From an uncultured virus (IMG/VR IMGVR_UViG_3300019373_000270) (taxonomy: Duplodnaviria; Heunggongvirae; Uroviricota; Caudoviricetes), in the IMG/VR virus record IMGVR_UViG_3300019373_000270: a DNA stretch of 64,000 bases; one strand, written 5' to 3'. Below the pieces are notes generated by a model. That model ran no database searches, had not been told where the DNA came from, and was given only the letters and a program-made list of their open reading frames with translations. Position 1 is the stretch's first letter. Every line of letters starts with the position of its first letter. Of the stretch, positions 48,162 to 55,941 are shown piece after piece. A program made the translations under genes and the position numbers.

Positions 48162-49519
48162 TTGGAGCAAATCGTGGGTTCAAAACGTCACTCAGAGTCA
48201 TTTCTACACAATAACTACCTAAAAACTACACCAGAACTGTCGTTTCATATTCGTTTTTTCACTCCTTTCATCCATATAATAATTCAAATTTTGAATAAAC
48301 ATAAAAAATTACAGGGGGGCAGTATAAAAACAAGAAAATCGAGAAGAAGAATAAAAGAATATAAAACTACGAAATCACTTCCCGAGGGAGGGAAATATCA
48401 AACACCGGCGAAAATCATCTTACAAGTAAGGTGTCTAAAATTTAGACAGTTTAATAAATCATCGTTCGGTGGTTTATTTCATTATCTTTTCAATCTATGC
48501 TCCATTATAACAATTCCGTATGAACTTTTTTCAAGCCTGCTCGTACATTTTTATATACAGAAGGAAGAAAAAGAATTCAAAAGGAAGAATCAAACAAGAA
48601 GAAAATATAAAGAAAAAATCCTTACACAAAAAGGAATAATCAAAATGATAAACTGATCGTTCTCTTTTACGAAAAGTGTCTAAAAATCAGACAAAAAATA
48701 AAATACATTCACACGTCTCTCTTCTCAAAAATTTTCCATAATGTTTTCTTTCAAAAAAATAGAACAGTAATTCTTTGGTTTATAAAAAAGATAATCGAAA
48801 GGAAAGTGTAGTAACATACACACGAACAAAAACGTCCCTGTGTAGTTCTGTTTCATACATCTATTCAACTCTCTGTCAAAAAAAAATCTCACATACTTAT
48901 TTTTACATACGGGAAAATATACAAACATTCCCTTATCATTCTTTTTCTTCACTCTTCCTTTGTACATCCATTCGTGTACAACTACGTGCATTATCTTTAT
49001 TTCCCTGAGTAAAACTTTCTATTCGGTAAATCTTCATTCTTTTTATCATTTTATCACTTCGTATCTGTCAGAGATCCTTTTATATCTTTTGTATCATCAG
49101 TATGAAATAGACCGTCCGATCATCATTCCTTTTCTCATTCTTTTCCATTATCATCTTGTAAAATGACCGATAAAAAATCATACAGAAACATCATTTAAAT
49201 TTCTGTATGATAAAAAATAATCACTTTCAAAAATATTTTTCTGAAAATATTTTCAGAGAATAATTATTCGGTATAATAATCATAAGCACGTTTTCTCTAA
49301 TGGTATCTTCATTTCAACCATCTAACATAATTTTTCCTATATATTTCATCTATGATTTCCGTCATATTGTTTTTCACCATAATAAAAATAATCTCTCTAA
49401 TGTTCCGATATCTCAGAACATTTCTCATAATGTTTTCTCACCGTTCTTCATTCCTATTATCATTTTTCTGTATAATAAAAAAAGACCCCGCGTAATGCGA
49501 GGTCAAAAAATAGCGGATC

Positions 49520-49903
49520 TCAATATGCAGGAGTAAAAGTACAGCCGGCTGATTCACATGCAGCCTTCATTTCTTCAACTTCATTTTCTCTTCTTTTCTT
49601 TCTCCAGTATTCTTCGTACTCTTTTGTCCCCGGAGTAAATATCTTACCGGTATTATAAAAAGAATTCTCAGGAGGAAGAATGGTCGTCGGAAGATTTTCG
49701 TAAAGTTCCATTTCTCTTACACTTATTTCGTTGCTAAAGAGATCCTCATATGAGGATTCGTATATGCATGGGTCGTTATATTTTCTGCAGTACTCTTCTG
49801 CGTCTTCTTTGTTGGAAGTAGCGAAAAGAATTTCTTCTTTGCTAACGGCATCACCGAATCCGCCGTCAACGTCGTATGAATGGATAATAAGATAGATTTT
49901 CAT
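49520..49903 (-). CDS. Hypothetical protein
   Basis: AAAGGAG SD; MKIYLIIHSYDVDGGFGDA start. Confidence 0.6.
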   Translation of the reverse strand: MKIYLIIHSYDVDGGFGDAVSKEEILFATSNKEDAEEYCRKYNDPCIYESSYEDLFSNEISVREMELYENLPTTILPPENSFYNTGKIFTPGTKEYEEYWRKKRRENEVEEMKAACESAGCTFTPAY

Positions 49904-50035
49904 ATGTAAAAACTCCTTTATAATAATAAGATCCAACTCGACTCCAAGTTATCAAGTAATAGATCTGATGTAATTATAAAAGAAAATACATAGCGATAAA
50001 ATAAACCATGAGAAAAAAATATACCTGCGGTCTAC

Positions 50036-50064
50036 TTGATTTTTTCTGAAAGATATGTTATAAT
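50036..50064 (+). promoter_or_regulatory. SigmaA promoter of tRNA operon 1
   Basis: TTGATT-17 bp-(TG)TATAAT. Confidence 0.8.
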
Positions 50065-50096
50065 GACCACAACATCAAAGAAAGGAGAAAACCGAA

Positions 50097-50225
50097 ATGA
50101 AAAAGTTCACTGTTTCATATCTGTATAGCGAATCATTACAGAGCCTCGTCCTCGAATCGGAAGAGACTTCTTTTGTGCTGCATACAGATAAAGCGGATGA
50201 ACATTTCGGGATCTCTTATTTCTGA
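50097..50225 (+). CDS. Leader peptide 1 (42 aa, Leu/Glu/Ser-rich): MKKFTVSYLYSESLQSLVLESEETSFVLHTDKADEHFGISYF
   Basis: AAAGGAG SD; lies between promoter and attenuator terminator. Confidence 0.8.
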   Translation: MKKFTVSYLYSESLQSLVLESEETSFVLHTDKADEHFGISYF

Positions 50226-50246
50226 GTATATTGATCCTTGTAAGTG

Positions 50247-50279
50247 AAACACCGTCTGTTTGCAGCAGGCGGTGTTTTT
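50247..50279 (+). terminator. Attenuator terminator 1
   Basis: AAACACCGTCTGT-TTGCA-GCAGGCGGTGTTT-TT, 5 nt before the first tRNA. Confidence 0.85.
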
Positions 50280-50284
50280 GTTAT

Positions 50285-50359
50285 GCCCGAATGATGGAAA
50301 TTGGCATACATTCCTGTCTTAGAAACAGGCTTCTGAGAGTTCGAATCTCTCTTCGGGTA
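50285..50359 (+). tRNA. tRNA-Leu(TAG), short variable loop
   Basis: CCTGT-CT TAG AA-ACAGG; GAGAG-TTCGAAT-CTCTC. Confidence 0.9.
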
Positions 50360-50364
50360 CTTAT

Positions 50365-50438
50365 GCGGGATTGGCGGAACAGGCATACGCAGCGGTCTCA
50401 AATACCGTTTTTTCAGGGTTCGACTCCCTGATCCCGCA
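50365..50438 (+). tRNA. tRNA-Leu(CAA), short variable loop
   Basis: GCGGT-CT CAA AT-ACCGT; CAGGG-TTCGACT-CCCTG. Confidence 0.9.
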
Positions 50439-50446
50439 TTTGATAT

Positions 50447-50519
50447 GCTCCCGTAGACCAACGGCAGAGTCAGCGGCTTTAAACACCGTTAAGTGTGAGT
50501 TCAAATCTCATCGGGAGTA
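50447..50519 (+). tRNA. tRNA-Leu(TAA), short variable loop
   Basis: GCGGC-TT TAA AC-ACCGT (31-39 mismatch); GTGAG-TTCAAAT-CTCAT. Confidence 0.8.
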
Positions 50520-50554
50520 TCAGGATCAATATATTCGGAAAGGAGATGTTTTCA

Positions 50555-50779
50555 ATGCCCGTTATAGATGTCAAGGCGACAGGTGCGAACATCAAAGCTA
50601 TAATGAAGATGAAAGGCTTTAAGATAGCCGATGTTCAGGAGAGGTGCGGCTTCAATACCCCGCAGGCTATTTTCAAATGGATGCGTGGAGATGCTGTGCC
50701 TACCATCGACAATATGATTATCATTGCCGATATGTTCGACGTGACAATAGACCAGATAGTTATAATCAAAAGGATATGA
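50555..50779 (+). CDS. XRE-family HTH protein (copy 1, inside tRNA operon 1)
   Basis: GFNTPQAIFKWMRGDAVPTIDN; AAGGAG SD. Confidence 0.9.
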   Translation: MPVIDVKATGANIKAIMKMKGFKIADVQERCGFNTPQAIFKWMRGDAVPTIDNMIIIADMFDVTIDQIVIIKRI

Positions 50780-50854
50780 CTTGTCAGGAAATATTGATAC
50801 ATAATAAAACAATGCACAGTTGCGGGATATGCTAACTTACCTGTAACTTGCTTC

Positions 50855-50926
50855 GGCCGCATCGTCTAATGGTCAGGACACAAGGTTTTCAACCTTGAAA
50901 TGTGGGTTCAACTCCCACTGCGGTCA
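50855..50926 (+). tRNA. tRNA-Glu(TTC)
   Basis: CAAGG-TT TTC AA-CCTTG; complete cloverleaf. Confidence 0.9.
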
Positions 50927-51011
50927 TTATAGCGCCCCATTTGAAATTCAGACAAGTTCCATGCTTTTGCGGCAGTGTTTTGTGGATTTCAATAGTCGGA
51001 ATGCTAAAAAT

Positions 51012-51106
51012 GTCCGTGTGTATGAACGTCATCAACATAGTTGATGACCGGAATACATACTCGGTTCAGAACCGAGGTTTTGTGAGTTCGAGTCTCCCCA
51101 CGGATA
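51012..51106 (+). tRNA. tRNA-Leu(CAG)-like with a 21-nt hairpin inserted in the D-loop
   Basis: Acceptor GTCCGTG/CACGGAT; CTCGG-TT CAG AA-CCGAG; T-loop TTCGAGT. Confidence 0.75.
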
Positions 51107-51109
51107 TAC

Positions 51110-51182
51110 GGCGGATTCGTCTAATTGGACAGGACAGGAGACTTTCAATTTCCAAATATGGGTTCGAGCCCCGTATCCGTCA
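51110..51182 (+). tRNA. tRNA-Glu(TTC)
   Basis: GGAGA-CT TTC AA-TTTCC. Confidence 0.88.
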
Positions 51183-51202
51183 TAAGTAGCTTACAAAGCT
51201 AC

Positions 51203-51231
51203 TTGACAATTCTCTGTATGAGTGATATAAT
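51203..51231 (+). promoter_or_regulatory. SigmaA promoter of tRNA operon 2
   Basis: Perfect TTGACA-17 bp-(TG)TATAAT. Confidence 0.9.
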
Positions 51232-51287
51232 CAGTTACAACAACAGGGGAGCAACAAACTCCCGAATTACTTTACGAAAGGATGAGA

Positions 51288-51425
51288 ATGATGAACTCTG
51301 CTAAGAACATTTCTGTTATCAGATGGTTTGAGTATCAGTATAGCTTTAGCTTTAGTTTTGACCAGTGTGGTCAAGGCTTTGTTGTACTGCATACTAAACC
51401 CGATGATCTTTCAGGTTCAAGATAG
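51288..51425 (+). CDS. Leader peptide 2 (45 aa, Phe/Gln/Cys/Trp): MMNSAKNISVIRWFEYQYSFSFSFDQCGQGFVVLHTKPDDLSGSR
   Basis: GAAAGGA SD; lies between promoter and terminator. Confidence 0.8.
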   Translation: MMNSAKNISVIRWFEYQYSFSFSFDQCGQGFVVLHTKPDDLSGSR

Positions 51426-51456
51426 AGTTTATCTGCCATCTTCTGATAGAACATAT

Positions 51457-51493
51457 CGTCTGTATGTAGTGCGAACTCATACGGACGTTTTTT
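51457..51493 (+). terminator. Attenuator terminator 2
   Basis: CGTCTGTATG...(GCGA loop)...CATACGGACG followed by T6. Confidence 0.85.
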
Positions 51494-51518
51494 ATTTCTA
51501 TCGGAAGGTGGTATTATT

Positions 51519-51749
51519 ATGACTTCGGAAATGCCGGTCATTGATATGACAGCGACAGGCTCTAACATAAAAACTCTTATAAAAGAAAAAGGTCTGAAAG
51601 TGGCTGAAATTCAGAACATTCTGGGGTTCAACACACCTCAGTCCATATTCAAGTGGATGAGAGGGGAGTCCATGCCCTCTATCGACAATCTGGTGATACT
51701 GGCACATATCCTGAATGTCACCATTGATGAGATAATAATCCTGAACTGA
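51519..51749 (+). CDS. XRE-family HTH protein (copy 2, first gene of tRNA operon 2)
   Basis: GFNTPQSIFKWMRGESMPSIDN; paralogue of 50555-50779. Confidence 0.9.
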   Translation: MTSEMPVIDMTATGSNIKTLIKEKGLKVAEIQNILGFNTPQSIFKWMRGESMPSIDNLVILAHILNVTIDEIIILN

Positions 51750-51773
51750 ATGTCCCGAAATCTCGGGACACAT

Positions 51774-51846
51774 GCCCTTGTAGCTCAGTTGGTAGAGCGC
51801 AGGTCTGAAGAACCTGGCGCCGCAAGTTCGATCCTTGCCGAGGGCA
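51774..51846 (+). tRNA. tRNA-Phe(GAA)
   Basis: CAGGT-CT GAA GA-ACCTG. Confidence 0.92.
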
Positions 51847-51852
51847 TTATGA

Positions 51853-51923
51853 TTCCGTTTCGTCTAGTGGTAGGACATCGGTTTCTGACACCGAAAACGG
51901 GAGTTCAAATCTCTCAGCGGAAA
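51853..51923 (+). tRNA. tRNA-Gln(CTG)
   Basis: TCGGT-TT CTG AC-ACCGA; U1-A72. Confidence 0.9.
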
Positions 51924-51926
51924 TAT

Positions 51927-51997
51927 GACTGTGTAGCCAAGCGGAAAGGCAGTCGGCTGCAACCCGACGAGCGTAGGTTCGACCCCTATCACAGTCT
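51927..51997 (+). tRNA. tRNA-Cys(GCA)
   Basis: GTCGG-CT GCA AC-CCGAC; U73. Confidence 0.92.
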
Positions 51998-52007
51998 TTT
52001 GCTAAAT

Positions 52008-52080
52008 GCCTTTGTAGCTCAGTTGGTAGAGCGTATGCCTGAAGAGCATAGCGTCGCAAGTTCGATTCTTGCCGGAGGCA
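52008..52080 (+). tRNA. tRNA-Phe(GAA)
   Basis: TATGC-CT GAA GA-GCATA. Confidence 0.92.
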
Positions 52081-52086
52081 CTATGA

Positions 52087-52158
52087 TTCCGTTTCGTCTA
52101 ACAGGCAGGACAACAGACTTTGACTCTGTAAGTGGGAGTTCGACCCTCTCAGCGGAAG
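52087..52158 (+). tRNA. tRNA-Gln(TTG)
   Basis: ACAGA-CT TTG AC-TCTGT. Confidence 0.92.
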
Positions 52159-52162
52159 CTAT

Positions 52163-52234
52163 AGGAGAATAGTTCAATGGCTAGAATGACGGTCTCCAAA
52201 ACCGTAGATCTCAGTTCGACTCTGAGTTTTCCTG
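52163..52234 (+). tRNA. tRNA-Trp(CCA)
   Basis: ACGGT-CT CCA AA-ACCGT; G73. Confidence 0.92.
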
Positions 52235-52251
52235 TCTATACTACAGGTTTA

Positions 52252-52280
52252 TTGAAATCTGTTCTAAGTTATGTTATAAT
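52252..52280 (+). promoter_or_regulatory. SigmaA promoter of tRNA operon 3
   Basis: TTGAAA-17 bp-(TG)TATAAT. Confidence 0.85.
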
Positions 52281-52312
52281 GTCATTAAAGAAATCAAGAA
52301 AGGACGATCATC

Positions 52313-52405
52313 ATGAAAAACACAGTATTTGTATTCTCATATTCGTATAGTTATTCAAGCGTTGTTCAGAAGAATAGGGCTCGATTGGCTATGCGCGAAT
52401 GTTGA
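52313..52405 (+). CDS. Leader peptide 3 (30 aa, Ser/Tyr run): MKNTVFVFSYSYSYSSVVQKNRARLAMREC
   Basis: GAAAGGA SD; lies between promoter and terminator. Confidence 0.85.
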   Translation: MKNTVFVFSYSYSYSSVVQKNRARLAMREC

Positions 52406-52431
52406 TACTGTTTGATGATAAGTTTCAGCAT

Positions 52432-52465
52432 ATACCGTTTGGCTTTCGGGTCAGGCGGTATTTTT
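52432..52465 (+). terminator. Attenuator terminator 3
   Basis: ATACCGTTTGGCT-TTCG-GGTCAGGCGGTAT followed by a T run. Confidence 0.85.
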
Positions 52466-52476
52466 ATTTGTTATTC

Positions 52477-52562
52477 GGGAGAGTCACCCAGCGGCGAGGG
52501 AAGCGGTCCGTAAAACCGTGACATCTGAAACACCGAAGGTTCGAGTCCTTCCTCTCCCACCA
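52477..52562 (+). tRNA. tRNA-Tyr(GTA), C33, encoded CCA
   Basis: GCGGT-CC GTA AA-ACCGT; long variable region. Confidence 0.85.
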
Positions 52563-52566
52563 ACAC

Positions 52567-52652
52567 GGGCAGGTACAGAGAATCGGCAAACTCGGCGGTC
52601 TGTAAAACCGTTGCTTTATGCACAGTGGGGTCGGCACCCACCCTGCCCACCA
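52567..52652 (+). tRNA. tRNA-Tyr(GTA), atypical T-loop GTCGGCA, encoded CCA
   Basis: GCGGT-CT GTA AA-ACCGT. Confidence 0.85.
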
Positions 52653-52655
52653 TAT

Positions 52656-52748
52656 ACCGACATAATCCTAATAGGTAAGGGATCATCTTGGAAAGGTGAC
52701 AGTAATCAGGCTATCCCTGATGTTTCGGTTCGAGTCCGAATGTCGGTG
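52656..52748 (+). tRNA. tRNA-Ser(GGA)
   Basis: TCATC-TT GGA AA-GGTGA; long variable arm; G73. Confidence 0.85.
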
Positions 52749-52754
52749 TCATAC

Positions 52755-52840
52755 GCTGTGTTAGTGTAATAGGTAACACACTGCTCCCGAAAAGCAGCGT
52801 CCTTACGGGCATACAGGTTCGAGTCCTGTACACAGCGCCA
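52755..52840 (+). tRNA. tRNA-Ser(CGA), C33, encoded CCA
   Basis: CTGCT-CC CGA AA-AGCAG; variable arm; G73. Confidence 0.85.
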
Positions 52841-52843
52841 TAC

Positions 52844-52938
52844 GGTCACATAAGCCTAATTGGTAAGGCAGCGGTTTGCTAAACCGTGAGTAATCGGGTT
52901 ATTCTGATGTCCGAGTTCAAGTCTCGGTGTGGCCGCCA
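52844..52938 (+). tRNA. tRNA-Ser(GCT), encoded CCA
   Basis: GCGGT-TT GCT AA-ACCGT; long variable arm; G73. Confidence 0.9.
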
Positions 52939-52941
52939 TCT

Positions 52942-53026
52942 GCCGTGTATGCAGGTTGGCTCTGCAAACTGTCCTGAAAACAGCATACCGTAAAGCGGTA
53001 CGAGGGTTCGATCCCCTCACACGGCG
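52942..53026 (+). tRNA. tRNA-Ser(TGA), C33, A8
   Basis: ACTGT-CC TGA AA-ACAGC; variable arm TACCG/CGGTA; G73. Confidence 0.8.
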
Positions 53027-53035
53027 CTGAAGCTA

Positions 53036-53068
53036 AAAGAACTTGCTATTATTGTAAGTTCTTTTTTT
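53036..53068 (+). terminator. Terminator closing the tRNA array
   Basis: AAAAGAACTTGC...GTAAGTTCTTTTTTT. Confidence 0.75.
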
Positions 53069-53133
53069 ATTGTTTCAAGTTTTCTTCTATCATAACATCA
53101 AGAATTCGTTTTCAATCAAAGGAGGAACTTTAT

Positions 53134-53250
53134 ATGTTTGAAAAAATAAAGTATGAGCCAACAGAACAGGATAAATCATTTCCTCTGTACAATGATGGGA
53201 TAGAAGAAAACGACGATGATTATGAATTTGAAGAATATAACTGTGACTAA
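53134..53250 (+). CDS. Small acidic protein (38 aa) MFEKIKYEPTEQDKSFPLYNDGIEENDDDYEFEEYNCD
   Basis: AAAGGAGG SD; too short for the ORF track. Confidence 0.5.
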   Translation: MFEKIKYEPTEQDKSFPLYNDGIEENDDDYEFEEYNCD

Positions 53251-53370
53251 ACAAACCATATATGATTTTTTATCCGTCATAATTTTCTGCTAATATATAA
53301 TCAGTATTTGAGAATTGATGGCCGGAGTATTTTTCTCAAATAACTTTTATAAACCAAAAGGAGAAAAAAC

Positions 53371-53670
53371 ATGTTTGATGAATTAACTTTAGAAAAAAAC
53401 GATCTTGATATCGAAGAACCCAAAGATTATAAACTGATGTTATGGAATGACGATACTACACTTATAGATACAGTTGTAAAAGTACTAACTGACATCATTG
53501 GTTTTGATACCCAAAAAGCTGTAAATGTAACGATAAAGGCTCATAACTTCGGGAACTGCTGCGTAGGTATGTATCCCTACGAAATAGCAGAAACGCTAAT
53601 GGTAGAATCAATGAAGTATGTCCATTCAAGAGGTTATCATGATTTTAAAATGACAGTGGAGGAAGCATAG
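53371..53670 (+). CDS. clpS: ClpS N-degron adaptor
   Basis: YKLMLWNDDTT..DTVVKVL...AH.FG...VGMYPYEIAET. Confidence 0.9.
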   Translation: MFDELTLEKNDLDIEEPKDYKLMLWNDDTTLIDTVVKVLTDIIGFDTQKAVNVTIKAHNFGNCCVGMYPYEIAETLMVESMKYVHSRGYHDFKMTVEEA

Positions 53671-55941
53671 ATGAATATAAATCAATTAATAAAAGAAACG
53701 GCAGATTATGTAGACTCGAAGAACAGAACACTTATTACTACCGAGGATCTGTTGATAGTAATGATGTCAAAACTCAATGAATATAATATTCTTGACTTCG
53801 ATGAAGCTATCGAATTTCTGGAGGAATATCAGCGGGAAAATTTTGAGAGGACCCCATTAAAAAACATCAAGAAAATGATAATAAGCCAGAGAATATACGA
53901 ATTACAGGAAATGATAGAATCATCGCCTGTTGCAGTACAGAACACACATGATGTCCCTCTTACAGTCGTAATGACCTTCATCGCCTCATCCGAAATAGAT
54001 TCAATGGCTTCCATATTATCTAAAAGACTTATTGGCAGCGATACTGCCAAATTTGAAAAGCTTATATCAGCCGAGACTGAGAAAATTCCGGATTTTAAAT
54101 TTAATATAAATTCATTCAGAGATTATAAAGAAGATAAACGACAAACAACAAACGAAAGAAAGACAGGCACAAAAGAAAAAAGATCTGCTCTTGAATGTTT
54201 CGGCATAGATCTTTCTGAACGAGAAAGGAGAAATCCTCTTGTAGGCAGAGAAAAAGAAATGCAGCGTGTGATAGAAGTCCTTCTCAAAAAGGACAAGCCT
54301 AATCCTATCCTGACCGGATCTCAGGGAGTTGGCAAAACCGCTGTGGTACAGGAACTTGCCATAAGAATAAAAGAAGGAAATGTTCCAAAGGCAATAAAAG
54401 ATACTGTAAGATCTATATACAGTATAGAAATTGCCGATCTTCTTGCTGGTTCTAAGTACAGAGGAGAATTTGAAGAAAAACTGAAAGCTGTTCTGGAAGA
54501 AGTAAATAACTCCGACCGTTCTGTAATTCTCTATATCGATGAAATACACACTATCATGGGTGCAGGTGCTAATCCGGACAATCCTGTTGATGCAGCAAAT
54601 ATCCTTAAACCGTATCTTACAAACGGAACTATAAGGATAATAGGCTCTACTACTACCGATGAGTACAGGAAGTTCATCGAAAGAGATAAAGCGCTCGCAA
54701 GAAGATTTATGCCTGTGGATATTCCAGAGCCTTCAGTAGAAGATACTATAAAAATCCTGAATGGTATAAAAGAAGGTTACGAAAAGTTTCATGGCGTGAC
54801 CTATTCAGCAAATGCAATAGAAGCTGCTGTAAAAATGTCAGCTCAATATATTCACGATAGATGTCTGCCGGATAAAGCTATTGATCTTATTGATGAAGCC
54901 GGGGCTAAATACGCAGCCGGTGTATACAAGAACAATACGATCAGTGTAGACGATATTGAAAATGTCCTTTTTGAAACATATAAGATACCCGGGTCACAGA
55001 TGACCCGTGATGAATCAGAGGACGTAAAATGCCTTTCCGATAACCTGAATAAAAAAATATTCGGACAGGAGGAAGCAGCCAACGCTTTGATGAAGCGCAT
55101 CAAACTTGCAAAGGCAGGAATAAGAGATCTGTCAAAGCCCATAGCTAACATACTGTTTGTAGGTCCGACAGGGACAGGAAAGACAGAGATCAGTAAAGTC
55201 CTTGCTGAATCCTTAAAGATGAAACTGCTCAGATTTGATATGTCTGAGTACCAGGAAGAACATACAGTCGCAAAACTGTTCGGCTCGCCTGCAGGCTATG
55301 TCGGATATGAGGATGGCGGCTTGCTTACAAATGCGGTGAGGTCAGACCCTAACTGTGTTCTGCTGCTTGATGAGATAGAAAAAGCACATCCAAAGGTCTA
55401 TAACGCCCTTCTTCAGGCTATGGATTACGGTATGATGACCGATTCAAAGGGAGTGAAAGTTGATTTTACGAACACTGTAATAATTATGACTTCCAATGCG
55501 GGAGCTGATTCAATAGTAAAGAAAAATGTCGGTTTCGGGAAATCATCCGAAACATTAGATATTTCAGCTATGGATAAAGCACTTGAAGAAAAATTTCCTC
55601 CTGAATTCAGAGGAAGGCTTACAGATGTTGTGAAATTCAATGATCTTACTCCTGAAATATCTGAAATGATAGTAAAGAAAGAGATCGCTGCTCTGGCAGA
55701 TAACCTCACTAAGAAAAATGTCAAGCTCACAGTTACCGACAGCTGCATCGAACATCTGGCTGAGATCGGATACACTCCCATGACGGGAGCAAGAAATATA
55801 AAAAATCTTGTATCAAAAGAAATCTCCGAACTTATAGTCGATGATATGCTCTTCGGAAAACTCAAAAACGGAGGAAGTATAAAGATAGACCGGTTGGAAA
55901 AGAAATACAGAAAAACTATACGAACAAAGAAAACTATTTGA
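53671..55941 (+). CDS. clpA: ClpA-like double AAA+ unfoldase
   Basis: LVGREKE, GSQGVGKT, GSKYRGEFEE, GPTGTGKT, RFDMSEYQE, VGF loop; no long middle domain; adjacent clpS. Confidence 0.9.
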   Translation: MNINQLIKETADYVDSKNRTLITTEDLLIVMMSKLNEYNILDFDEAIEFLEEYQRENFERTPLKNIKKMIISQRIYELQEMIESSPVAVQNTHDVPLTVVMTFIASSEIDSMASILSKRLIGSDTAKFEKLISAETEKIPDFKFNINSFRDYKEDKRQTTNERKTGTKEKRSALECFGIDLSERERRNPLVGREKEMQRVIEVLLKKDKPNPILTGSQGVGKTAVVQELAIRIKEGNVPKAIKDTVRSIYSIEIADLLAGSKYRGEFEEKLKAVLEEVNNSDRSVILYIDEIHTIMGAGANPDNPVDAANILKPYLTNGTIRIIGSTTTDEYRKFIERDKALARRFMPVDIPEPSVEDTIKILNGIKEGYEKFHGVTYSANAIEAAVKMSAQYIHDRCLPDKAIDLIDEAGAKYAAGVYKNNTISVDDIENVLFETYKIPGSQMTRDESEDVKCLSDNLNKKIFGQEEAANALMKRIKLAKAGIRDLSKPIANILFVGPTGTGKTEISKVLAESLKMKLLRFDMSEYQEEHTVAKLFGSPAGYVGYEDGGLLTNAVRSDPNCVLLLDEIEKAHPKVYNALLQAMDYGMMTDSKGVKVDFTNTVIIMTSNAGADSIVKKNVGFGKSSETLDISAMDKALEEKFPPEFRGRLTDVVKFNDLTPEISEMIVKKEIAALADNLTKKNVKLTVTDSCIEHLAEIGYTPMTGARNIKNLVSKEISELIVDDMLFGKLKNGGSIKIDRLEKKYRKTIRTKKTI

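Follow-up and report, generated by a model that had tools for sequence, protein, structure and literature searches.

How might a short open reading frame (ORF) rich in serine and tyrosine codons be related to the tRNA genes for the same two amino acids that lie immediately downstream of it? The question is raised by a locus in a 64,000-nucleotide stretch of DNA (hereafter the window) filed as IMG/VR virus record IMGVR_UViG_3300019373_000270. The locus, which we call module 3, consists of a promoter, a Shine-Dalgarno-like (SD) site, a 30-codon leader ORF, an intrinsic terminator and an operon of two tRNA-Tyr and four tRNA-Ser genes (Table 1). Judging from its layout, its predicted RNA pairings and comparison with related leaders of Ruminococcus, we consider it probable that module 3 is a ribosome-mediated (leader-peptide) transcription attenuator gating this accessory tRNA operon.

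Anatomy of Module 3

An attenuator of this kind requires an ORF with a ribosome-binding site, a cluster of cognate codons and a terminator ahead of the first regulated gene, and all three are found in module 3, where promoter, SD site, ORF, terminator and tRNA genes also follow one another in the required order. The eight consecutive Ser/Tyr codons pointed out in an earlier note on this DNA are indeed present in the frame of the leader, and Ser or Tyr accounts for 8 of the 13 codons of its sensing window. This is the only run of at least eight such codons in the six frames of the window, and runs of at least six number two, compared with a mean of 0.71 in 200 shuffles. The end of the terminator stem is 15 nt away from the first tRNA-Tyr gene.

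Module 3 is known to us from six loci, namely the window, R. albus 7 (L002), genome G002 (L081) and three metagenome contigs. The last three came from scanning metagenomes for a 26-nt core of the module, and one of them does not differ from the window in the 230 bases that were compared. The promoter is kept and the leader ORF is open in all six.

Table 1. Coordinates of module 3, its tRNA operon and the two sister modules in the window.
Feature	Positions	Strand	Remarks
Promoter, module 3	52252-52280	+	TTGAAA, 17-nt spacer, TATAAT, TG extension ahead of the second hexamer; 11/12 matches
Shine-Dalgarno-like AAGGA	52300-52304	+	8 nt 5' of ATG 52313; read directly
Leader ORF	52313-52405	+	30 codons and TGA (52403-52405); peptide MKNTVFVFSYSYSYSSVVQKNRARLAMREC
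Ser/Tyr regulatory run	52337-52360	+	8 codons, TCA TAT TCG TAT AGT TAT TCA AGC, in frame with ATG 52313
Region 1 core	52344-52353	+	Within the Ser/Tyr run; partner of region 2; from the fold, duplex -17.9 kcal/mol
Region 2	52382-52395	+	Alternative partner of region 1 or of the terminator 5' arm (antiterminator); from folding
Small hairpin AUGUUGA/UCAGCAU	52399-52431	+	Inside the antiterminator; includes the stop codon; from folding
Intrinsic terminator (regions 3 and 4)	52432-52469	+	13-pair stem 52432-52461, -16.2 kcal/mol, then TTTTTATTT (T run)
tRNA-Tyr (GTA)	52477-52562	+	Default ARAGORN and Rfam tRNA model; anticodon loop CCGTAAA, C at position 33
Second tRNA-Tyr (GTA)	52567-52652	+	Unusual T loop; ARAGORN at relaxed threshold only
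tRNA-Ser (GGA)	52655-52750	+	Default ARAGORN, Rfam tRNA model
tRNA-Ser (CGA)	52755-52840	+	Default ARAGORN and Rfam; anticodon loop CCCGAAA, C at position 33
tRNA-Ser (GCT)	52844-52938	+	Default ARAGORN, Rfam tRNA model
tRNA-Ser (TGA)-like	52942-53027	+	Loop CCTGAAA; ARAGORN at relaxed threshold only
Terminator ending the Tyr/Ser tRNA operon	53035-53065	+	Hairpin/terminator search
Sister module 1	50036-50278	+	Promoter 50036-50064, leader 50097-50225 (42 codons), terminator ~50246-50278
Sister module 2	51203-51487	+	Promoter 51203-51231, leader 51282-51425, terminator ~51457-51487

Alternative Pairings and the Proposed Switch

The leader RNA (52287-52476) has a minimum free energy (MFE) of -56.5 kcal/mol (z = -4.88), and none of 200 shuffled sequences was as stable. 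In the MFE fold a long hairpin, whose core pairs CGTATAGTTA (52344-52353) with TGGCTATGCG (52386-52395) as the earlier note had proposed, is followed by the terminator. Only 1 of 2991 random 23-mers of the window formed a helix as good as that between regions 1 and 2 (helix 1:2). The predicted antiterminator (helix 2:3) consists of CGA 52382-84 with UCG 52446-48, GGCUA 52387-91 with UGGCU 52440-44 and GCG 52393-95 with CGU 52436-38, and encloses an inner hairpin (52399-405/52425-31). The alternative helices put forward earlier (52378-84 with 52446-52, and 52399-405 with 52425-31) are complementary as written, but the predicted antiterminator has in common with them just its own outer three pairs and the inner hairpin. 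All three pairings of an attenuator, 1:2, 2:3 and 3:4, are predicted in module 3, the first of them strong and the second amounting to just -10.4 kcal/mol, and none of the 2991 random 23-mers matched region 2 in pairing with both region 1 and region 3.

A switch operating at thermodynamic equilibrium was considered and rejected, as the terminator probability stayed at 0.90-0.98 in all three modules of the window when the RNA was folded with the ribosome footprint blocked. Because the terminator is dominant at equilibrium wherever the ribosome stands, any switch must be kinetic. The switch of the E. coli trp attenuator is likewise kinetic rather than an equilibrium one. We also folded the RNA from the 3' edge of the ribosome to the terminator loop just made. 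In this kinetic fold little of the terminator's 5' arm is base-paired (0.22-0.26) with the ribosomal A site at 52313-52331; the arm becomes 0.49-0.65 paired with the A site at 52334-52373, a range spanning all eight Ser/Tyr codons, and returns to 0.20-0.48 paired as the ribosome nears the stop codon.

The proposed mechanism would run as follows. Transcription would start from the promoter and a ribosome would load on the leader. Given rapid decoding of Ser and Tyr codons, this ribosome would reach the stop codon at 52403 and mask region 2, the terminator stem would form, and the tRNA genes would stay off. They would also stay off if no ribosome is loaded, regions 1 and 2 then pairing with each other and leaving the terminator to form. 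A ribosome stalled within the Ser/Tyr run would mask region 1 instead, so that region 2 would be free to pair with the emerging 5' arm of the terminator; this pairing would block the terminator and let the polymerase read into the tRNA genes. Since the products of the operon are the very tRNAs that read the stall codons, decoding speed would be fed back onto tRNA supply.

Sister Modules in the Window and in Ruminococcus albus 7

The window holds three paralogous modules, of which module 3 is the third; they share one plan, and in each of them the leader residues are the amino acids of its own tRNAs. The module-1 leader reads MKKFTVSYLYSESLQSLVLESEE..., including ..SYLYSESLQSLVLESEE.., and is of a Leu/Glu type; downstream of it lie three tRNA-Leu genes, a small helix-turn-helix (HTH) gene and two tRNA-Glu genes. 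The module-2 leader contains ..RWFEYQYSFSFSFDQCGQGF.. (Trp/Phe/Gln/Cys type) and is followed by an HTH gene and then by tRNAs Phe, Gln(ctg), Cys, Phe, Gln(ttg), and Trp.

The megaplasmid pRUMAL01 of R. albus 7 carries all three modules, at about 99.6-103.1 kb, in the same order as the window. In its module 2 a tRNA-Asp replaces the first tRNA-Phe of the window, and the leader (...RSYDDYQCFFSFSFDWQDEGLF...) has four Asp codons in its sensing part versus one in the window. Comparing the two sequences, the tRNA gene and the leader codons of module 2 have evidently changed together.

Leaders and tRNA Sets Across the Ruminococcus Family

An alignment of the two HTH paralogues of the window with two from L002 was used as a bait against species-representative genomes. 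This gave 163 pattern matches and 120 relatives, of which 78 loci, from rumen Ruminococcus or Oscillospiraceae, were kept and annotated with ARAGORN together with scripts that look for hairpins followed by a T run and for ORFs that have an SD site. Across these loci a conserved terminator (CACCGTCTGTATGCA...CAGGCGGTG) is found with a leader ORF 5' of it. After leaving out L001, which overlaps L002, as well as modules without a downstream tRNA and ORFs not fitting the frame motif, the 78 loci yielded 67 modules with 60 distinct leader peptides, which sort by eye into about a dozen visibly different classes. For instance, MKQFTMVYLYSEHYEESFYHESEEALFVLHT... is followed by Tyr, Glu, His, Glu, and Ser tRNAs, MTRFAMNNLYSHSEYYLLSLYLEETLIVLHT... 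by four Leu, Glu, and Tyr tRNAs, MTTIKNALRQYVFFAQQFQFRFFRQWQEKRFIVLH... by Trp, Phe, and Gln tRNAs, and MNTIRHSFNGYQWCFTFGFCFVQQNESLFVLH... by Gln, Cys, Phe, Gln, and Trp tRNAs.

Cognate codons make up 649 of the 1312 codons in the sensing windows, compared with 397±23 when tRNA sets were shuffled among the leaders, and none of 10,000 such label shuffles, which are blind to kinship, reached the observed number. Each of the ten amino acids tabulated is commoner in leaders followed by its own tRNA than in those without it (e.g., frequencies of 0.101 vs 0.011 for His, 0.134 vs 0.005 for Gln, and 0.176 vs 0.009 for Asp). This comparison of genes with their leaders showed that, throughout a large family of Ruminococcus leaders, the make-up of a leader tracks the tRNAs encoded behind it.

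Compensatory changes are found in both alternative helices of the family. Region 3 of the family is the 5' arm of the terminator (CUGUAUGCAG), and two conserved peptide motifs coincide with pairing segments, YLYS being encoded by CUGUAUAGC (region 1) and VLHT by GUGCUGCAUACAG (region 2). In an alignment of 64 sequences, pairing amounts to 93.8% in helix 2:3 and 87.7% in helix 1:2; double changes affect four of the eight pairs in the former (21 cells) and five of the eight in the latter (23 cells). The covariation score of helix 2:3 was reached by none of 500 shuffles, and partners slid along the alignment were 14-64% paired. A three-way change is found in L047, L053, and L070, where region 2 has GUGCAG for AUACAG, together with CUGCAU in region 1 and CUGCAC in region 3. 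Under a strict kinetic criterion, at least six pairs between region 2 and region 3, the antiterminator forms solely with the ribosome in the N-terminal portion of the leader or around its middle in 60/60 distinct modules, and 627 of 1471 codons inside the antiterminator-forming span are cognate, versus 128 of 989 outside. A looser criterion, by which the terminator arm could pair with anything upstream, was abandoned as too permissive since it flagged local hairpins.

These motifs bear on a rival reading, in which the 30-residue product of module 3 is a functional small protein, the terminator ends its transcript, and the tRNAs come from read-through or another promoter. The peptide is conserved in 6/6 module-3 loci and its alternating Ser and Tyr residues could form a beta strand. 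We give this reading very little credit, since the conserved YLYS and VLHT are RNA pairing segments, the remainder of the peptide varies with the tRNA set across the family, and the 15 nt between terminator and first tRNA hold no promoter-like site.

Whole genomes were also searched, independently of the HTH bait, with a covariance model (R1) that spans region 2 to the terminator. Of the 39 genomes in the genus to which G001 belongs, 18 gave a total of 30 hits, 26 of these being followed by tRNA genes; the other four hits were L121, with another ORF, L134 and L141, which are decayed, and L135, which has the HTH gene and no tRNA in the fetched stretch. Three of 151 genomes sampled from the wider family matched, two of them weakly (E about 1e-3). 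A hit at L118, which is without a tRNA, is probably false.

Several of the loci have an individual structure. In L134 and L141 (about 1430-1640) a leader that carries a frameshift is followed by an intact terminator, the HTH gene is reduced to its last codons, and there are no tRNAs. L136 (minus strand, about 1420-1760) has an intact Leu-type leader that is split from its terminator by an insertion of ~130 nt with hairpins of its own, so that regions 2 and 3 lie far apart. L121 (about 1400-1760) has a Glu/His/Tyr/Ser-type leader and a terminator followed by an unrelated ORF, with no tRNA within 1.5 kb; it may have been rearranged, or else the switch here acts on a protein gene. In G406 and G407 modules occur on both a multi-megabase contig and a smaller one, and G407 has the same module pair twice (C1 and C5).

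The presence of HTH_3 genes within modules 1 and 2 and at all baited loci, as well as palindromes beside promoters, might point to another mode of control, in which a trans-acting factor (a protein, such as the small HTH protein, an RNA, or a tRNA bound directly as in a T-box) acts on the terminator and the ORF is incidental. We regard this as highly improbable for module 3. It has no HTH gene of its own, and HTH_3 proteins are DNA binders by family annotation. A search of 49000-54000 at E up to 1 gave no Rfam match to the T-box or to amino-acid leader families (Thr, His, Leu, Trp), the only matches near the module being to tRNA-type models. Nor does a trans-acting factor account for 60 distinct leaders that stay open and track the identities of their tRNAs.

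Module 3 as a Probable Divergent Member of the Family

How well does module 3 itself fit the family? An alignment of three copies of module 3 with four family members has shared blocks from promoter to terminator, with a mean column identity of 61%. The blocks shared with module 1 are the promoter, the SD site, N-terminal codons, GTATAG, and the terminator (ACCGT..CAGGCGGT); module 3 is ~50 nt shorter, which appears in the alignment as a deletion. From these alignments, module 3 most likely belongs to the well-supported Ruminococcus family as a shortened and divergent variant.

When 401 genomes of the family were searched by BLAST with module 3, none yielded an additional copy; four genomes had short partial matches, and the five loci inspected, one of them from elsewhere, were without a tRNA and were dismissed. 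In G407 a chain of tRNA genes continues with Tyr, Ser(gga), and Ser(cga), an order that suggests another copy of module 3 there. A variant of module 3 is also present in an RNA library, in a 913-nt contig of a relative that spans 52161-52936 across the terminator; since the RNA library may contain DNA and the contigs show no ends, we draw no conclusion on transcription from it. Two other RNA runs gave no such contig.

Several observations weigh against our interpretation of module 3. R1 scores it at just 14.3 bits (E = 0.6), so that the model does not place it in the family, while modules 1 and 2, which were both in the training set, score 99.6 and 61 bits. Its antiterminator, which is the weakest link of the attenuator reading, is rich in G-U pairs and weak: 163 of 2991 random 23-mers (the best 5.4%) pair equally well with the terminator arm, and the antiterminators of the sister types reach -14 to -24 kcal/mol compared with -10.4 in module 3. 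At equilibrium the terminator has a probability of 0.95-0.96 at every blocked ribosome position. No compensatory change occurs in any of the five distinct, near-identical variants of module 3 or in the RNA-library contig, and a TTT-to-TCC change in L148 makes terminator and antiterminator alike weaker. Furthermore, the shuffle statistics of the family ignore kinship among the loci, all of which were picked via the HTH gene. Finally, induction of tRNA genes would be of little use in amino-acid starvation.

Some of these points would be expected if module 3 were a decayed or simplified copy, with a promoter, a relic ORF and a leaky terminator, giving constant low transcription of the Tyr and Ser tRNAs and no codon-dependent switch. 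Such a copy would be in keeping with an antiterminator equalled by so many random segments, with a terminator that dominates at equilibrium, and with a module unrecognised by the family model that has lost ~50 nt relative to module 1, and clearly decayed modules do exist in L134 and L141. Nevertheless, we find this reading rather unlikely. All six loci have retained an intact ORF, the SD site, and the run of eight codons; the run, unique in the window, encodes Ser and Tyr and nothing else, the same two amino acids as are served by the six downstream tRNAs; of 2991 controls, 2990 pair with region 1 less well than region 2 does; and an A-to-G change at 52391, found in three variants, keeps the pairing with both partners.

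The earlier proposal of a codon-matched leader attenuator has thus gained strong comparative support from the two sister modules and from 60 leaders that track their tRNAs, but is left with a weak 2:3 helix in module 3. Most likely, module 3 is a working or recently working attenuator, the mechanism being deduced from anatomy and comparison. We infer that ribosomes stall on the run, that the weak antiterminator suffices, and what would deplete the tRNAs in nature.

Does the Leader Sense Single Isoacceptors?

The earlier note held that the Ser codons of the run are read by downstream tRNAs with anticodons TGA, CGA, and GCT, preceded by two tRNA-Tyr genes. All of these genes were found, but the Ser(gga) gene had been overlooked, and the second Tyr and Ser(tga) genes were called at a relaxed threshold only and were not reported by the Rfam tRNA model. 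The Ser(tga)-like gene matched solely the tRNA-Sec model, at 35.9 bits against a cut-off of 47; its homologue in L002 (R. albus 7) was called Ser(tga) by ARAGORN with default parameters.

Codon usage in the leaders argues for sensing at the level of the codon box. Leaders before Ser(gct) alone have 74 AGY and 11 TCN codons, and those without a downstream Ser tRNA have 80 and 45, respectively. Module-3-type leaders, which precede TCN-reading Ser tRNAs, have 6 AGY and 10 TCN codons (Fisher p = 7e-5 vs the gct-only leaders, uncorrected for kinship). As many as 50 of 53 Gln codons are readable by the downstream Gln anticodons. From the AGY/TCN usage and the readability of Gln codons, it follows that codon boxes match. 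For Leu, matching single codons to anticodons gave no useful information (81 of 150 codons could be read by the anticodons listed), with arrays often cut by contig ends and wobble rules uncertain.

The sensing of single Ser isoacceptors, which the earlier note had read from the diversity of synonymous codons, has support at this codon-box level only. TCG occurs in 3/6 module-3 loci, all three with Ser(cga), and TCA stands in its place in the other three, two of which also have Ser(cga); the run of module 3 has no TCC or TCT codon for its Ser(gga) tRNA. Within the module-3 loci, therefore, neither TCG vs TCA nor a TCC codon tracks the presence of Ser(cga) or Ser(gga).

The gated tRNAs have features of their own. 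In genome G003, where 52 tRNA matches were fetched and 51 typed by ARAGORN, there is, for each of the gated genes Glu(ttc), His(gtg), Glu(ctc), and Ser(gct), a single other copy elsewhere, which is just 56-64% identical, so that the gated genes form a divergent second set. Three tRNAs of the Tyr/Ser operon (52477-52562, 52755-52840, and 52942-53027) have C for the near-universal U at position 33, and a non-T at this position occurs in 17 of 288 distinct array tRNAs of the baited loci vs 0 of 51 tRNAs of the whole genome G003. The T loop of the second tRNA-Tyr is GTCGGCA, as against the usual TTCGAAT type, and this is kept in the five other module-3 loci.

What might such a second set be for? 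We offer, as a tentative idea with a low chance of being right, that these arrays are a damage-response reserve of divergent spare tRNAs, some of them non-U33, transcribed only when the housekeeping tRNAs for the same codons have been cleaved or depleted (e.g., by anticodon-nuclease toxins of competitors or phages). Each leader codon would then probe one isoacceptor, and the mixed TCA/TCG/AGT/AGC run would report on several Ser tRNAs.

Neighboring Genes and the Nature of the Window

The HTH_3 (XRE-type) paralogues of the window, of 74-76 residues, lie at 50555-50779 and 51519-51749, within modules 1 and 2 and downstream of the attenuator, and homologues are present in all 78 baited loci. Palindromes read directly from the sequence flank the promoters, with GTAGCTTACAAAGCTAC 5' of the -35 hexamer of module 2 and TATACC..GGTCTA 5' of that of module 1. 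The HTH_3 proteins of modules 1 and 2 may be autorepressors that add a second layer of control.

A tRNA-like gene at 51011-51107 has a stable hairpin of ~25 nt inserted in its D region. ARAGORN called it Arg(ccg), 97 nt, at a relaxed threshold only, and its loop TTCAGAA would read CAG; a similar insert is found in R. albus 7 (L002, about 893-985) in a gene at the place of Leu(tag). Just 3' of the tRNA arrays, at 53371-55941, a gene for a ClpS adaptor (99 aa, Pfam E 8e-20) is directly followed by one for a ClpA/ClpB-type double AAA+ ATPase (756 aa). A weak match to a group II intron domain lies on the minus strand at 49000-49062 (24.9 bits vs a gathering score of 34.5), where it is cut by the edge of the searched stretch.

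Phage structural families were matched by 0 of 20 window proteins, and any PHROG by 3 of 20. The Pfam matches in the window are ParA-like, type II/IV secretion ATPase, RecJ, SMC-like, topoisomerase, ClpS, ClpA-like, and ImpB-type. A 3.1-kb tRNA region matched 67 records of the GenBank phage collection, none at 80% query coverage; among the matches listed (20 of the 67) coverage was at most 5%, mostly over single tRNA genes. The ClpA-like neighbor as a bait in viral contigs gave 35 pattern matches and no relatives. An 18-kb query matched one plasmid record, pRUMAL01 of R. albus 7, with 75.6% identity over 27% of the query. The window is not phage-like and resembles a Ruminococcus megaplasmid, that of R. 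albus 7 being the nearest relative with a name, and the setting of a phage and its host, which the earlier note had implied, is not supported.

Relation to Known Systems and Significance

Leader-peptide attenuators are well known in Proteobacteria (trpL, hisL, leuL, thrL, and pheL, and the multivalent ilv and thr leaders). Module 3 resembles them in its short, putatively translated leader, its run of presumed regulatory codons, its four regions with predicted 1:2/2:3/3:4 alternatives, and its terminator just ahead of the tRNA genes; its stop codon would let a finishing ribosome mask region 2, and several amino acids are served by one leader, as in ilv and thr. Unlike them, it would regulate tRNA genes rather than biosynthetic enzymes, so that the product is the sensed molecule, and it belongs to a Firmicute of the class Clostridia, where T-boxes are usual, with no match to an Rfam leader family. 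In the pheST operon of E. coli a leader peptide (pheM) controls an aminoacyl-tRNA synthetase. That case is likewise attenuation of a gene of the translation apparatus, not of biosynthesis, but it concerns a protein enzyme and Phe codons only, whereas module 3 has tRNA genes and mixed codons. With the T-box (RF00230) module 3 would share the sensing of tRNA state, the choice between terminator and antiterminator, and the occurrence in Firmicutes; the T-box, however, binds uncharged tRNA directly without translation, whereas module 3 has a conserved SD site and ORF.

To our knowledge, the known controls of tRNA supply act on promoters and are global, and the matching of single tRNAs to demand is poorly understood. 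We found no published case of leader-peptide attenuation of tRNA genes in the full-text literature searched, subscription journals lying outside its scope. A long tRNA array of cyanobacteria has been described as inducible and as an accessory operon important in translational stress (PMC8421152, Nucleic Acids Res 2021); it belongs to another phylum and is much longer, and its main text, which contains no occurrence of attenuat-, leader, or terminator, thus describes no switch of this kind. Likewise, neither "tRNA gene" nor "tRNA operon" occurs in a genome-wide attenuator survey (PMC2965389).

If our interpretation is correct, module 3 would be a case of codon-specific feedback from decoding speed to tRNA gene transcription, which follows the logic of the trp and his attenuators with the product itself being sensed. 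The family is a natural experiment, in which dozens of leaders have been rewritten as their tRNA sets changed, and because it occurs in cultivable rumen bacteria, the idea is directly testable. It would account for the silencing, up to the time of need, of accessory tRNA arrays carried by megaplasmids and perhaps by phages, and leader-peptide attenuation would join the regulatory repertoire of Clostridia.

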